NCBI GenBank assembly: GCA_963714975.1
Contig: CAVQQD010000002.1
Location: 736,001 to 800,000, forward strand
Direction of reading: 5' to 3'
Origin: an uncultured Gammaproteobacteria bacterium
Lineage (GTDB): Bacteria > Pseudomonadota > Gammaproteobacteria > JAURND01
DNA length: 64,000 bases
Every line of letters begins with the position of its first letter. The stretch's first letter is position 1. The notes below the pieces were generated by a model, which saw nothing but the letters and a program-made list of their open reading frames with translations, was not told the DNA's origin and did no database searches. This document shows, piece by piece, positions 55,522-61,924 of the stretch. The position numbers and the translations under genes are program-made.

Positions 55522-56703
55522 ATGGAATTTCCAAGAGAACCCAAAAAAAAGAAAGTAAAACTACCTAAAAATTCAGTTGATGTTTTGGATGAACGCTTGC
55601 GCGCGTATACCGACGCACTTTTTACCTTGAGTCAAGCGTATTACGATTTTTCATCCATGGCAAAAAACTCCAATGCTCAAGTGCAATCGATACTGGAAAT
55701 TAAACCAGAAATTTTACCGCCTGAATTATTAGAGTCTGGTGAAAAATGGTTGAAGAAATTCATCTGTGATCAGGCCCAGGAACTTGAATATAAATTAACT
55801 GAATCAAATTTGGCAGAGAAAGTTTTGGAGTTTAAATTATTACACATGGCTCTTGATCTTCATGGGATGAAAAAGCAGGCGGGAGATGATTTTTCATCTG
55901 CCTTAAATAAAGCATATTCGTTACAAGCGGATAATGGAGTAGAAGCACTAAGCCAGACAAAATCGCGGGTAGAGTTTCTGTTAAAATACTGGATAAATTT
56001 ACCCAATAACCAAAAGGATTCTATTGCAAGGGAGAAGGCTAATGATTCTATTAAATATTTAGAAAGACAAATATCTAAAGCTAAAACTAATTTGGCAGAA
56101 AGTGGTTCAACCCAAATTGATCGTTCGAGTAATTATGAAGATAATCGAAGGAGAGGGAGGGTGGGAAAATCAGCTAAAATTCCATCTTCTAATTCTCCTT
56201 CTTCTAGCAGCATGAGTCCTCATTTTACAAATTCTAGTTCTTCTTATTTGAGATTCATGACAGGGGATTTAAAAAGATCAGATTCCGAGAAACCGCAGTT
56301 ACCATTAAATAATCCAACATCTTTTGGGATAAATAACAGTTTCGACTTGACGAGCAACACATTGCTGGAAAATAAATATGAGCAAAATGATGAGGACGAC
56401 GGGTATGATGCTGATGATGAGGAAGCAGATTTGGAAAAATCAGTAATAGAGCTTTCATTGGGCCTTGATCCGTCAAACGAAAAGGAGCAATCCGTAACTG
56501 CGTCTGCAAGCGGTTCATTTATCGCTGTTAATTTTGAGCAGACTGCTAGTTCTATGGTTACAGTCAATGCCAGTACACGTAGTAGATCAAATGCAACACC
56601 TGCAGGTAGCACTTTTAGATTTGTGGGTGGTAATTTTCCCAGAAATTCAAAAACTAACGAAAATGCCCGCTCAGATGCGGATTTGGATAATCTCAGCCCC
56701 TAA
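55522..56703 (+). CDS. Hypothetical protein with an NLS-like N-terminus and Ser/acidic low-complexity C-half
   Basis: 393-aa ORF; PKKKKVK at residues 7-13; EDDGYDADDEE tract. Confidence 0.7.
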   Translation: MEFPREPKKKKVKLPKNSVDVLDERLRAYTDALFTLSQAYYDFSSMAKNSNAQVQSILEIKPEILPPELLESGEKWLKKFICDQAQELEYKLTESNLAEKVLEFKLLHMALDLHGMKKQAGDDFSSALNKAYSLQADNGVEALSQTKSRVEFLLKYWINLPNNQKDSIAREKANDSIKYLERQISKAKTNLAESGSTQIDRSSNYEDNRRRGRVGKSAKIPSSNSPSSSSMSPHFTNSSSSYLRFMTGDLKRSDSEKPQLPLNNPTSFGINNSFDLTSNTLLENKYEQNDEDDGYDADDEEADLEKSVIELSLGLDPSNEKEQSVTASASGSFIAVNFEQTASSMVTVNASTRSRSNATPAGSTFRFVGGNFPRNSKTNENARSDADLDNLSP

Positions 56704-56802
56704 TAACCGTCGATGGCGTATGGATATGGTGCGTACTGGAGCCTCCCTAGGTATTATCGGTAAATCTCTTAGGTTCTATGAAGTTTTGAGTGGGTAATAT
56801 AT

Positions 56803-56821
56803 CCTTCTCCCCTTGTGGGAG
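56803..56821 (+). repeat. Truncated REP family A, cut at the cassette end
   Basis: ccttctccccttgtgggag followed directly by ctatccgatgcacaca. Confidence 0.85.
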
Positions 56822-56846
56822 CTATCCGATGCACACAAATTCGGTT

Positions 56847-56902
56847 AGCAATTCCCGCTGAAGCCTTGCTCCCCGACGGGTCCTGCCGCAGCGGCAGGAC
56901 CC
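56847..56902 (+). repeat. Palindromic element family B (partial)
   Basis: agcaattcccgctgaagccttgctccccgacgggtcctgccgcagcggcaggaccc. Confidence 0.82.
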
Positions 56903-58531
56903 GAGGTTAATGGATTAACAGTGCATCACCTTCATGTTCTATCAAATCATCTAAAATCTCTTTCTGTATTTTTGTGCTACGATTCCTATAATGTATAGCA
57001 CATGCAAATAATAATAGGCTTAATCCGAGCAATATAGTCGCCGAAATGTTAAATTGCGCAAAGGGGTCATTGATGTTGAATGAAGGAGGTGACGATGATA
57101 GATCTTGGCCCATATTCCATGAATATATTATTAAAGTTCCGCTTGCAGTCAAAGTCGTTATTCCGAAAAAGACACTTCGAACTTTGTATGATTTTTGAGC
57201 ACTGAAATCCATAGCAATTTTTTCTAAGCCCAAAAATTTTATTATCTTCGATTCTTGTTCAGTCATTTCTTGTTTTGTTTGTGAAGAATCATGAACTCCA
57301 TGGGTTCTCCAGGTTCTTTTTACAAAATTTCTGAAATAAGTGTCAACAGGAGTTGGTGGTGTGTCCGTATTTTTTTGGTTCAGATTAAAGTCTGACTTTT
57401 TTGTTTCTAATATGTCGCTAGCAATGGCTCGATGACTGTCATACTGTGCCAATTTATTCTCTTGATTAGTCTCTACTGAAAAATAATTACGTAGCCGATA
57501 ATCTTCCTTAGGGCTATGACAATCTATGAGATTCACACCTTCTTCTGTAATTCCTTGCTTATCACTGTTTATATATTGGAACCTTTCTGCTTTAGGAGCT
57601 TGCATTTTTCTATTTTTTAAGTGGTTTTTAGCTTCTATCAAAAAATTTTTAGCAAATTCTAATTTTGATAGGTTTTGTGATGTATTTTTTCCAATTTTTT
57701 CTTCTGATACTGCAATTTTAGAATTTATTTCAGTAATCCAGTGATTAATTACAGCCTTGTATTTTTTTCTTTTATCCTTCAGCGCCGCATGTATGGAAGC
57801 ATAATGCACAACAACTCCATCATCCTGATGATCGTCCGTTCGATCCTGGTATTTAGTTCGTACGACTAAATAATCTTTATAAGCTAAGGGGATAGCTCGA
57901 AAGGCTTTACCGGAATTGAACTCCCATTTAACTAAGCTCACACCGAATTTCACAAAGGGTTTTGCCAGGTAACCGAGTAATTTACCGCCCCAAGTTTCTT
58001 TATGACCAATGCGCGGATGACCCCAAGCTTCAGGATGTTTGGTAGCGCGAATATTCCCCACGATATAATTGGTAATGGAAGAAAAAGATCGATCATTAAA
58101 TATATTAATGGGTTGGCCATGTTGATGAAAATGATGAGCAACTAAAGTTGCTATGGCTCCTCCTAATGAATGGCCTTTTAAGATAATATTTTGGGGAGAG
58201 ACACCTTCTTGGAGTAAACGCTGGACTTGAGCAATACCATCTGTGATTAAATCCTCTTTTGATCTTGGACTCCGTTTGCTCTTTATAACCCCTCGGTAAT
58301 TAAAACCAATCACATTACATTTTAATTCGTTAGCGTCATTCCTCATTGTATTTTGAATTTCTTCATAGCACATTTCGTTGCCGACAAAATTAATAATGTA
58401 TTTTTGGTTAATTATCGGCAAATTTTCTGGTGATTTATAGCTAAGTTCTAAGGTATCTAATTCAGCTTGATCGTGGGTGATTACTGTATATCGTTTCGCC
58501 GTTATAGAAGGAGAATTAGATAAATCTAGAT

Positions 58532-60081
58532 CAATGGCACTACCTTAAGCCACAGAATATTTTAAAATCCTTTTATTTATTTTACGTAGCAATTTTTCTT
58601 TTTCGATTGCTCTGTTTCTCTTCAAGGCTGGAAATGGTTTCGGTCTTTGCTTGACTAGCCTGGGCTCCACCCTATCTGGTCTATTTCCAACTTTGTTTTG
58701 CACAATTAATTTTAACATCTCAATATACATTTTATGGTTGCTCACCTGATTTGAGCTTATAAAATAAGGAATAAATTCATTTAGTAGCTGCACACTTCCC
58801 TTAAAGCTTATTTCCCATGGATTAACGCCATACTCATAACAAGCTTTTGCTATAATTATTCTGATAAAATTATATGCTAATAAATGAATTCCTATTTCTT
58901 TTCTAACCATTTCTGGTGTTTTGCACGATAACATATCCATATTCATGATACTTTTAATACTTCGCAAATTAAGCTCCACCTCCCACCTTCGCTTATATAT
59001 TTGGGCAAGCTCTGCTTTGTGGTATTTTTTGTCTAAAAATGTTGTAACGTATATGTGGCCTGATACTTTAAATTCCCGTATGGAAATTTGATCGGGGTAT
59101 GCCTCATATTGCTTTTGTGTCATCCATTCCGGTTTCTGTGGTTTCTCCCAGTTGACAATGTGATCATTTTTACCCAATTTTTGTCCCATTCTAAAATCAT
59201 AATTCCTTTGACTTTGTCCGCGAAAAACACCATCAGCTCCTATTTTTTTTAAGTCCGCCATAAGAAAAAAATTGGGGTAATAACGGTCACCCAGCACAAT
59301 ATCGTCGGCTTTAATGCAGTTTATAATTTCTCTTAATAATGAGATTTCTCCTGTGCCCTTTCCTTTGTGAGCCCCTATTGCATAATCTATTACGGTTCCC
59401 CGCGTCAGTGACATAACGGCTACTATTCGCGCCATAGGAAATCCAGCCCCTTTTTTCTGATTACCATGCTGAGGAAATTTTTTTTGATTAGCTTTTGTAT
59501 CCGACATTTTGACGGTAGATCCATCAAATGCTTTTAATTCTCGGCCATAGACTTTCCATCTCATTGGAATAGATTTCAAAGGGAAAGCTCCAGATTCTTT
59601 AACTAATGCCTTCACAGTATCTTCAGGCAATCGCTTTCTGGCCTTACAATAGGGGCCAGTATTTGAGCTTATTTTATTCTGCTTCTTTTTTTTACTATGC
59701 AGCTGCTCCACAACAACACCAGCAACCGCTTTTTTGCAGGATTTATCTGGATTTAAAACTTGTTTAATAAACGTAAATAAGGTTTTGGTGGGGCTATATA
59801 TCCGGTCACGATATTCCCGGCACTCTCTAAGTATCTTCTGACATTTTTCTGAATTCAATAGGTTTAACAGGAAAATGTCTGGTGCACCATCAGCCAATTC
59901 TTGTCTTTTATTTTTAACTTGCTTAATTTTATTTTTCTTTTTAAAATTCACAGATCAGTTTCCTTTTTTTATTATTGTGTGTTTGCTACAACAATAATAT
60001 TAAATTTGGAAACTGATTTCATCTTTTTTCATCTAAATCATAGGCTTATATTCATCTTTGCTCCTTAAGGTAGTGCCATTG
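58532..60081 (-). mobile_element. IS4-family insertion sequence, 1550 bp
   Basis: 18-bp perfect TIR caatggcactaccttaag; 10-bp TSD aaatctagat at 58522-58531 and 60082-60091. Confidence 0.95.
58545..59951 (-). CDS. IS4-family DDE transposase
   Basis: AFDGST, GDRYY, Y..RW.VE..LR.IK (YREK motif); stop codon inside the TIR. Confidence 0.93.
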   Translation of the reverse strand: MNFKKKNKIKQVKNKRQELADGAPDIFLLNLLNSEKCQKILRECREYRDRIYSPTKTLFTFIKQVLNPDKSCKKAVAGVVVEQLHSKKKKQNKISSNTGPYCKARKRLPEDTVKALVKESGAFPLKSIPMRWKVYGRELKAFDGSTVKMSDTKANQKKFPQHGNQKKGAGFPMARIVAVMSLTRGTVIDYAIGAHKGKGTGEISLLREIINCIKADDIVLGDRYYPNFFLMADLKKIGADGVFRGQSQRNYDFRMGQKLGKNDHIVNWEKPQKPEWMTQKQYEAYPDQISIREFKVSGHIYVTTFLDKKYHKAELAQIYKRRWEVELNLRSIKSIMNMDMLSCKTPEMVRKEIGIHLLAYNFIRIIIAKACYEYGVNPWEISFKGSVQLLNEFIPYFISSNQVSNHKMYIEMLKLIVQNKVGNRPDRVEPRLVKQRPKPFPALKRNRAIEKEKLLRKINKRILKYSVA

Positions 60082-60325
60082 AAATCTAGATCAATGCTTG
60101 GGAGGCTCATCTGTTGAGCTGGTAAAACTAAAAATTTTCCTAGTAATTCTCCCAAAAACCAATTGAATAGCCACTTGAAAAAATCCCATAACAAGATGGG
60201 TGGGAACAAAATTCGCCAAAGGATAGGTTTCACCCATGTCTGTTCAGGCTTTGAAGCTGTATAGGATTTTGACTCTTGCATTTAATTCCTCACATGGAAC
60301 GCCGTCAAATTGTAGTCTTAATAAA

Positions 60326-60358
60326 ATGTTATCTGATTATTCTTAAGAGAGTATTAAC
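60326..60358 (-). promoter_or_regulatory. PmrA-like box plus -10 upstream of the SidB-like gene
   Basis: gTTAATACT-ct-cTTAAGAAT-N7-TAACAT. Confidence 0.65.
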
Positions 60359-60414
60359 GAGCCTTAAATGTGTGCATCGGATAGTTTGAAAAAAGGGGAA
60401 ATTATTTTTTATTA

Positions 60415-60447
60415 ATTCATAATTTCTTAAGAATGAATCTCTATAAT
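60415..60447 (+). promoter_or_regulatory. PmrA-like box plus -10 upstream of the porin
   Basis: aTTCATAAT-tt-cTTAAGAAT-N7-TATAAT. Confidence 0.6.
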
Positions 60448-60535
60448 TCACAAAAATTAATTAGATAAACTGGGACTTGTGCAATAGGGTGAAGGATAAA
60501 TCTATAACAAAAAAAAATTAGTAGAGAGGCGAGTT

Positions 60536-61924
60536 ATGCGATTATGGGTGCTTTCTTTAGTATGTGTTCCTTTTGTTTCTTTGGCGGCTGGTGAAGCGGA
60601 TGTTGGCGGTGGGACGGATTCAGAGGTCTTGCAACAGGAGTTGGCTGAAATCAATGCTTCAGATACTGCGGATTTTCTTAAAGATGGCAGTGTGGTTTTT
60701 CGTACCACTTGGTACAGCCGCTATCGTGAAGGCTTTCCTAGTCTGTTTTATCAATCCTCTGGCGATAAGAAATTTAATGTCTTGGGTCTGGCCTTGGATA
60801 TTAGTTCCGGTTATTTGTGGGGAATTTTAGGTTTTGATTTCAGCTTCAATAGTAATCTAAAAATAGGTCCCACTGTCGGGCAATCGGAAATATTATTTTA
60901 TGACTATGCAACCCGTCAGGAAAAGAGTGAGGCGATGATTGGTCGGGCTTCGTTGAAATTAAAATTGGGTGGTGATGATAATGGCTTCAAGGCCAATGTG
61001 GGTTATACCCCTATTGATGTTGGGACCATTGGCACTTCCAGTGGGTTGCATCCTCATGGGTATCGTGGCTTTGATGCGAAATATATTTTTCATGATTTTG
61101 AGTTAGGTTATGGCTGGGCTGATCAATTTCACAATGAGTGGACTACTGATTTTTTACCGATCACCACTTCTGAGGCGCAGAATCAACCGCCTTTTCAGAA
61201 TACTGGAAAACGCATTGATTATATCCATAGCCTAGGTGCGCGTTATAAATTTGGTCCGCAAAAATCTGGGTTTGTAGATGTGGGCGTGGGGCAGGGGAAA
61301 GATTATCGTAATAATCAACAAGTAGTGGCTGGTTACCAATTTGATCTGGCCAAGGAACGTGCTTTTAATATCACGGGCTATTATTTTCAAGGCCAATATA
61401 TTCCGGAATTATCAGGTGTTGCGAATCCAAGTAATGAATGGCACACCAGTTTTGGCGTGAATTACCACGAGGGTCCTTGGACATTTGTTGCTGGTTATGG
61501 AAAAACCCATGCTCCTGATTCTGGAGAGCTAAATTTTGCCTTGGCTGCCTATGGGAATAGCGATAGTCGTGATTTTAATCAGGTTTCTGCACAGTTAGAT
61601 GATTATATTTGGGATGGTGAGCAAGCAGTCAAGTTGGGGGTGAATTATGAGATTGGACGCTTAATTAATTTGCCAGGTTTGGTGACGGGTGTTAGTTACA
61701 ATTATGGTTGGGGTTTGATCAATCGCAATGCCAACGGTCAAGTGATTGGCAGGAGTAAGGTTTCTGAAATTGATACTAAGTTAGTTTATACCGTATCTGA
61801 AGGCGTGCTTAAGGGGGTTAGTGCTGGGGTTTATGCCGGATGGCTACGGGGAGATAATGATTTTTATGGTAAACCACCGCGTAATGATGTAAAGTTCATT
61901 CTTTCCTATGAGATTAAATTGTAA
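60536..61924 (+). CDS. Outer-membrane porin, OprD/ChiP-like
   Basis: Signal peptide, SGY..G.LGFD, amphipathic aromatic beta strands, C-terminal DVKF.LSY. Confidence 0.75.
   Translation: MRLWVLSLVCVPFVSLAAGEADVGGGTDSEVLQQELAEINASDTADFLKDGSVVFRTTWYSRYREGFPSLFYQSSGDKKFNVLGLALDISSGYLWGILGFDFSFNSNLKIGPTVGQSEILFYDYATRQEKSEAMIGRASLKLKLGGDDNGFKANVGYTPIDVGTIGTSSGLHPHGYRGFDAKYIFHDFELGYGWADQFHNEWTTDFLPITTSEAQNQPPFQNTGKRIDYIHSLGARYKFGPQKSGFVDVGVGQGKDYRNNQQVVAGYQFDLAKERAFNITGYYFQGQYIPELSGVANPSNEWHTSFGVNYHEGPWTFVAGYGKTHAPDSGELNFALAAYGNSDSRDFNQVSAQLDDYIWDGEQAVKLGVNYEIGRLINLPGLVTGVSYNYGWGLINRNANGQVIGRSKVSEIDTKLVYTVSEGVLKGVSAGVYAGWLRGDNDFYGKPPRNDVKFILSYEIKL

Follow-up and report, generated by a model that had tools for sequence, protein, structure and literature searches.

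The IS50 subgroup of IS4-family insertion sequences (IS) is listed with lengths of 1350-1550 bp, ends of the form CW------Y---CA-A--W- and direct repeats of 8-9 bp (PMC2266710, Table 1). Mobile insertion cassettes (MICs) with IS4-family ends are documented (PMC3913671, PMC2266710), the examples given including MIC231 of Bacillus cereus and the qnrD and qnrS2 mic elements (PMC3913671). [quoted passage not shown] We analysed a locus that can be compared with all of these in a 64,000-nucleotide stretch of DNA (the window, G000:C2:736001-800000) from an uncultured gammaproteobacterium. Its genome, G000, comprises 2.56 Mb in three contigs (C1-C3) with 42-45% guanine plus cytosine (GC); G002, G006 and G008 denote other genomes compared, and L-numbers denote loci from scans for the transposon tip described below. 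In this window a perfect inverted pair of a 16-bp tip encloses a gene resembling Legionella sidB, and a sequence-only reading had taken the pair for the boundaries of a mini-transposon that moves complete, regulated effector units. We consider it probable that the pair represents the outer tips of two independent, eroded MITE remnants that face each other from either side of a SidB-like gene, acquired horizontally and since disrupted by an IS. The finding is thus an IS50-subgroup IS/MITE family with REP-loop targeting, of kinds already known, and not a new means of moving effectors.

On the plus strand the 16-mer CTATCCGATGCACACA occupies 56822-56837, and 60369-60384 carries its exact complement. 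Allowing up to 3 mismatches, the window contains four matches to the tip, against 0.32 expected from shuffles, the remaining two (19431 and 35555) carrying 3 mismatches each. The left flank CCTTCTCCCCTTGTGGGAG (56803-56821) is the initial 19 nt of a 23-nt hairpin repeat, CCTTCTCCC-CTTGT-GGGAGAAGG, and follows gene 55522-56703 on its downstream side. On the right, the flank TTTGAAAAAAGGGG (60385-60398) belongs to a second, different hairpin type, of which it is the 3' portion, and lies upstream of a porin gene at 60536. Comparison of the flanks found no direct repeat bordering the 56822-60384 pair. The perfect inverted pair, the left end inside a REP hairpin, the right end beside a half hairpin and the lack of a target duplication had all been read correctly from the sequence.

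The DNA behind the two tips belongs to different elements. The left remnant aligns over 82 bp, at 95% identity, to the initial 80 bp of a 134-bp MITE (G000:C3:707437-707570) and no further. It runs through a central palindrome with a perfect 13-bp stem and ends 4 nt from the stop codon of the SidB-like gene; the hairpin that had been assigned to the cassette as its downstream hairpin does exist, and it is this palindrome of the left MITE remnant. For the right stub the alignment, to the terminal part of a 168-bp MITE (G000:C1:120940-121107), covers 28 bp at 82% identity and includes a 5-bp gap, again extending no further, and its first 20 nt are identical to both tips of the full IS in L166. 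Subterminal sequences differ as well, the left resembling an L090-type end and the right an L166/L074-type end. The hairpin type of the right flank also borders MITE ends at G000:C3:177574, and a complete copy is present near C2:961974; both flanking hairpins, different in type, are cut at the position usual for the family. No MITE-like sequence was found elsewhere in the interior of the pair. Judged by these alignments, the two ends of the locus are truncated remnants of different MITE subfamilies, seated in different target hairpins. Two separate insertions predict exactly different subfamilies and different hairpins at the usual cut, while a single insertion would require an additional rearrangement.

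The 16-mer is a genome-wide repeat terminus and not a feature private to this locus. G000 contains 26 exact copies; the count rises to 44 when 1 mismatch is allowed, to 54 with 2 and to 69 with 3. The 54 ends with at most 2 mismatches are divided equally between the strands (27 each), and a control with the reversed pattern gave none. Twelve close convergent pairs account for 24 of these ends, and 11 of the pairs, 131-324 bp long and non-coding, are MITEs: they are short, non-coding and multi-copy, and full IS copies carry identical tips. These MITEs fall into several subfamilies that have little sequence in common beyond the tip. The twelfth pair (G000:C3:520393-521870, 1478 bp) contains an IS110-family element (DEDD_Tnp_IS110, 70.9 bits, 335-aa frame) that has broken a MITE after about 32 bp; G000 has 9 IS110-family matches of two types. 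The subfamily of the left end shares with QMITE2, as described in PMC5896051, short inverted ends, a central palindrome, a size range of 130-320 bp, duplications close to 9 bp in length and the role of landing site for an IS110-family element (IS1111 in Coxiella). The likeness observed is one of architecture. For the present family a Tn5-like parent was found, a point of difference from the description of QMITE2.

The other 30 of the 54 ends are solitary, and for the 28 outside the window a search up to 6 kb away gave no partner with fewer than 4 errors. Since only 0-229 bp of MITE-like sequence is retained behind solitary tips (82 bp and 28 bp at the window's ends), truncation is common among them. 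In twelve of the 30 the sequence left behind the tip, itself often perfect, is 40 bp at most (e.g. C2:303769, C3:99587, C3:229923 and C1:211699), the one at C3:229923 being a bare 16-bp tip between two REP halves. On the inner side of 14 among 18 short stubs, the start or stop of an open reading frame (ORF) of at least 100 aa is no more than about 170 bp away. Such very short solitary tips probably reflect erosion of intergenic DNA. The tip also occurs in other genomes, with 58 ends in G002, which represents another genus of the family, and 6 in G006. The MITE of G002 (L024-L043) is uniform in length (278-281 bp), nearly palindromic and carries the same tips, in about 24 full copies and some truncated ones. 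A full-text search of the literature library used gave three unrelated papers and did not find the tip sequence in print there.

Exact 17-mer scans returned 123 further loci, 72 from genome contigs and 51 from metagenome contigs. They include ten full elements with convergent tips, from other bins and from metagenome contigs, measuring 1418, 1488 (three elements), 1489 (two elements), 1492, 1494, 1502 and 1559 bp and having longest open frames of 398-479 aa. The transposase of L074 scores 322.8 bits on the NCBIfam model transpos_IS4_3 (cut-off 160 bits) and also matches DDE_Tnp_1. Its best solved relative in the PDB is the Tn5 transposase (E 9.3e-30), to which it aligns nearly end to end (residues 13-426). 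The motif YTWRWIIEQIFRTLK, i.e. Y(2)R(3)E(6)K, can be read in the L074 ORF. We compared the tips with the end consensus listed for the IS50 subgroup: 23 of 24 tips, including both tips of the window and 19 of the 20 tips of full elements, agree at all 7 conserved positions, as do 0.06% of random 20-mers. One full element (1559 bp) exceeds the size range listed for the subgroup by 9 bp. The identity to the IS50 outside end quoted in the sequence-only reading, 11/19, holds for the left tip and is 10/19 for the right one; a score of 11 is reached by 0.2% of random 19-mers from the genome. The guess that the ends are IS50-like was correct, because both the element sizes and 23 of 24 tips fit the published description of the subgroup, and on these similarities the ends are genuine IS4-family, IS50-subgroup ends. 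Relative to the subgroup as described in PMC2266710, the parent elements agree in length, tips, transposase motif and alignment to Tn5 transposase, and their duplications likewise span about one helical turn. They differ in that the duplications are mostly 9-10 bp (up to 12) instead of the 8-9 bp listed, in a strong preference of the tip family for the loops of hairpin repeats, and in its survival in this lineage mainly as several modular MITE subfamilies.

An IS50-group transposase with these ends, which the sequence-only reading had proposed to look for, is therefore present in other bins and metagenome contigs; a search of G000 found no cognate transposase apart from a small remnant (E 4e-4). 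This remnant, at G000:C1:158107-158190, comprises 26-28 residues similar to the N-terminus of the family transposase, about 230-300 bp inside the solitary end C1:157877, and may be all that is left in G000 of an autonomous copy. Other candidate parents were rejected: none of the DDE_Tnp_1 loci examined in G000, G002 and G006 has tip-like ends, and the Tn5-like transposases of G002 and G008 have different ends. A search for the parent IS in G002 with the MITE of that genome found just MITE copies, and it was the 17-mer scans alone that revealed the parent. Twelve contigs of one bin (L072, L081, L084, L093, L094, L104, L107, L108, L117, L126, L130 and L134) stop about 70-125 bp inside the tip, and three contigs of an Acidocella bin (L073, L075 and L133) do likewise. 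Contigs ending in this way in such numbers betray an assembly interrupted by a full-length IS in many copies, so that the family is active outside the gammaproteobacteria.

The choice of target is a general habit of this family. The REP hairpin of the left flank has 241 copies in G000 at up to 3 mismatches, most of those displayed continuing with AAGG; nine copies are occupied, always with the insertion after GGGAG. In most cases this hairpin forms the terminal module of longer palindromic repeats of composite build, e.g. ...AAGGTGGCCGCAGGCCGGATGAGGG, and a near-identical repeat borders the full IS in metagenome contig L166. Perfect target duplications were found for 10 of 20 MITEs in G002 (9-10 bp, with a single mismatch in 3 more), for half of the ten full elements (9, 10, 10, 10 and 12 bp) and for 2 of the 12 short pairs in G000 (8 and 9 bp). 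The duplicated sites have the consensus C(T/C)......AG, which explains why 31 of the 54 ends in G000 have AG just outside the tip, and many insertion sites are the loops of small hairpins. Docking in REP hairpins, as had been proposed for the cassette, is thus confirmed for the family and is not new in kind. Like the REP-targeting IS described in PMC1525189 (ISRm22, IS1397/ISKpn1, IS621 and ISPpu9/10), the family concentrates its insertions in small extragenic palindromes. It differs in consisting here mostly of non-autonomous derivatives and in a target choice that seems to follow a short symmetric consensus in hairpin loops, not a single REP family. At L166:781-2339 and L033 the flanks are inverted complements (12/12 and 10/12 positions) and not direct repeats, and the same was seen by eye at G000:C3:55092-55359; in all three cases the element is centred in a long palindrome without visible duplication.

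We then asked how often two unrelated ends would face each other as they do in the window. Besides the close pairs described above, the window pair is the only convergent pair of 0.4-10 kb in G000. If the limit is widened to 30 kb, convergent solitary pairs number four, with spans of 3.5, 13.7, 23.4 and 25.8 kb. Random placement of 15 plus-strand and 15 minus-strand solitary ends predicts 0.34 convergent neighbouring pairs within 4 kb; at least one such pair arises by chance in 29% of random placements, and in 45% when the orientations alone are shuffled. Convergent spans in the 123 loci elsewhere all measure either 103-281 bp or 1418-1559 bp, and neither these loci nor the other convergent pairs of G000 hold cargo between their ends. 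Outside this locus, the scan for paired ends with cargo, suggested by the sequence-only reading, yielded MITEs (103-324 bp), IS of 1.4-1.56 kb and solitary scars, in essence the outcome that this reading had named as refuting its cassette. The junction between the left remnant and the end of the gene has no match in metagenome contigs. There is no sign that the stretch ever moved as a unit.

Both MITEs derive from one IS50-subgroup (Tn5-like) IS of the IS4 family. The left one would have entered the loop region of the REP hairpin downstream of gene 55522-56703 and the right one the loop region of the different hairpin upstream of the porin gene. Each MITE would have lost the part facing the SidB-like gene, by deletion or in the event by which the gene arrived, so that 82 bp and 28 bp stayed in place. 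The tips would have been left pointing outward, in a structure resembling a transposase-less cassette. The SidB-like gene is split by another, young and active element, which also belongs to the IS4 family but is of a different kind and would have arrived later. Whereas the repeat family, its parent element, the target preference, the truncation of both ends, the IS insertion and the chance expectation are directly shown, we infer the order of events and the manner in which the inner halves were lost.

Several observations weigh against this history of two independent remnants. Both tips are perfect (16/16) and correctly oriented outward. Because conservation across the family is confined to about 16 bp of tip, a matching transposase acting in trans would probably accept the pair as its substrate. 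Hybrid MITEs with two different subterminal sequences exist in G000, so that a single unit is compatible with different subfamilies at its two ends. Little weight attaches to the missing target duplication, which genuine copies often lack as well. Both remnants lost exactly their gene-proximal halves, with one breakpoint 4 nt away from the stop codon and the other immediately next to a putative regulatory repeat, a tight fit that the chance model does not require. The G000 assembly is 93.75% complete, so that a transposase copy could be missing from it. A true MIC-like cassette would have moved as a unit in trans and lost its duplication later, through exchange of flanks or a transposase-linked rearrangement. 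Transposases of the Tn5 type act on short ends, whatever DNA these enclose. The perfect outward tips match the conserved core of an IS50-subgroup element, there are no inner ends, the cargo fits tightly between the remnants, and genuine family copies without duplication are frequent. As in the MICs cited above, a passenger gene and its own upstream region stand between inverted IS4-family ends, and the interior lacks a transposase of the IS to which the ends belong. The locus differs from these MICs in having no duplication, no signs of movement, no second copy and no cognate transposase in the host, and in that its ends come from two MITE subfamilies in two targets, each an independently typical hairpin. 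The SidB-like gene is single-copy in G000, no other cargo-bearing pair exists there or in the 123 loci elsewhere, and a chance pair is expected in a substantial share of random placements. The proposed mini-transposon moving regulated effector units is not borne out, and we regard a cassette of this kind as distinctly unlikely. Similarly improbable is an accidental but real effector MIC, in which two orphaned Tn5-like ends bracket a complete SidB-family gene with its regulatory region, the unit having been moved, or being movable, in trans by the matching transposase in circulation among related environmental bacteria. If it did exist, the hairpin repeats would be docking sites for the exchange of Dot/Icm effector genes, and the many very short solitary tips with a gene next to their inner side would represent more junctions of the same kind.

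The ends could also be recombination scars, a horizontally transferred gene having recombined into a site with two MITEs, or through patches of MITE homology in the donor, with replacement of the inner halves. The low GC of the gene region (32-40% in most 400-bp windows, compared with 42.5% for its contig), the absence of the gene from all 8 other genomes of the family and the fact that its nearest named relatives are Legionella SidB proteins are consistent with transfer. The breakpoints hug the gene unit, and the presence of the same tips in other genera (the ends counted above in G002 and G006) makes homology between donor and recipient conceivable. Against this, the upstream neighbour 55522-56703 is also low in GC, and there is no sharp compositional island; the homology available amounts to just 28-82 bp; and no donor sequence was found, the junction search of metagenome contigs giving no match. 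On balance such a recombination origin seems unlikely. There is a vanishingly small probability that unrelated sequences match by coincidence over the inverted 16 bp: by a rough estimate a 16-mer inverted pair within 4 kb would arise somewhere in 64 kb with a chance of a few percent, but the 26 exact copies in G000, at the tips of MITEs and full insertion sequences, refute it. We also rejected the possibility that the whole pair is one hybrid MITE into which the gene was inserted, because the flanks are not one duplicated target. The two independent MITE remnants thus remain the probable source of the pair.

The IS inside the pair is unrelated to its ends. It is 1550 bp long, has perfect inverted ends of 18-19 bp with the sequence CAATGGCACTACCTTAAG, and is bordered by a 10-bp duplication, AAATCTAGAT, at 58522-58531 and 60082-60091. 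Its 468-aa transposase matches Pfam DDE_Tnp_1 (1.4e-21) and scores 216 bits on the NCBIfam model transpos_IS4_1 (cut-off 115 bits). Twelve copies, 99.7-100% identical, are present in G000, and a clear duplication of 10-11 bp borders most of them. With ends unrelated to the outer 16-mer and its own duplication, this element is a later guest; it is young and active, and the present copy inactivates the SidB-like gene. The gene is thus a recent pseudogene made by a second, still active insertion sequence. Among public reads, one soil-metagenome run contained 9% of the sampled words; as its coverage is confined to two pieces within the inner IS, the run is silent on the cassette. The features of the locus are collected in Table 1.

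Table 1. Coordinates of the features at the locus, numbered from the first position of the window.
Feature	Position	Strand	Details
REP-type hairpin, 5' part	56803-56821	+	cut after GGGAG by the left transposon end
MITE remnant, left end, truncated	56822-56903	+	tip 56822-56837; palindrome 56877-56903; second arm and second tip missing
SidB-like gene, 3' portion	56907-58531	-	frame 58529 to 56907, about 540 codons; stop 56907-56909
IS4-family insertion sequence splitting the SidB-like gene	58532-60081	-	transposase ORF 58545-59951
SidB-like gene, 5' portion	60082-60281	-	66 codons, from ATG at 60281 to the insertion point
Region upstream of the SidB-like gene	60282-60356	-	tandem TTAATA/TTAAGA, 11-bp period, about 60341-60357 (minus-strand reading)
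MITE stub, second subfamily, right end	60357-60384	-	28 bp; tip 60369-60384
Second hairpin type, 3' part (CCCC..TTTGAAAAAGGGG)	60385-60398	+	target of the right-hand element

The two pieces of the SidB-like gene were analysed separately. The larger piece has Pfam matches to Abhydrolase_1, Lipase_3 and DUF818. Over 57% of the query, its identity to SidB proteins of Legionella (the L. pneumophila SidB cluster) is about 50%, and one 553-aa metagenome protein matches it at 48% over 97%. On the NCBIfam SdbBC equivalog model it scores 85.7 bits, below the cut-off of 400 bits. The protein has the serine motif GHSLGG and a C-terminal extension of about 230 residues without counterpart in Legionella SidB. 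These similarities identify it as a homologue of the SidB/SdbB/SdbC hydrolase domain and not as an equivalog. Three DotI/IcmL matches (the best at 202.6 bits) were obtained in G000, so that a Dot/Icm type IVB system is probably present, and an effector role of the SidB-like protein is plausible. The resemblance to the Dot/Icm effector hydrolases SidB, SdbB and SdbC of Legionella extends to a host that encodes DotI/IcmL homologues, while the present gene differs in belonging to an uncultured gammaproteobacterium of another family and in being split by an IS. Of the unit that the sequence-only reading had placed between the ends, the homology to SidB stands; the gene, taken there as intact, is interrupted.

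Upstream of the gene, no sigma-70 consensus promoter was found in 60282-60368. The TTAATA/TTAAGA tandem there, termed PmrA-like in the sequence-only reading, is a putative regulatory repeat. No Rfam family was found in 56000-61000. Protein searches of the 8 other family genomes gave no orthologues of the SidB-like gene or of the porin gene, and for the upstream gene no clear orthologue, with one weak partial match (E 1.9e-7). G000 is the sole member of its genus among the genomes compared. No relatives of the SidB-like gene with genomic context were found on genome contigs, and a comparison of the DNA of the 10-kb locus with 30 relatives gave just the inner IS, repeat matches and short, weak matches in the flanks. 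The product of the gene at 55522-56703, which like the SidB-like gene is low in GC, has 393 aa and no Pfam or NCBIfam match. A domain of about 210 residues, 38% identical, is common to it and a 1497-aa open frame (G000:C1:292284-293852).

Were the cassette reading true, a simple transposon-based route would shuffle secretion-system effector genes among intracellular bacteria; at this locus that is unlikely. Decaying transposon ends can mimic the boundaries of a cassette, which calls for caution where inverted repeats surround virulence-type genes. What the locus records is that a hairpin-loop-targeting IS of the IS50 subgroup has spawned several modular MITE subfamilies in an uncultured gammaproteobacterial lineage that encodes DotI/IcmL homologues.

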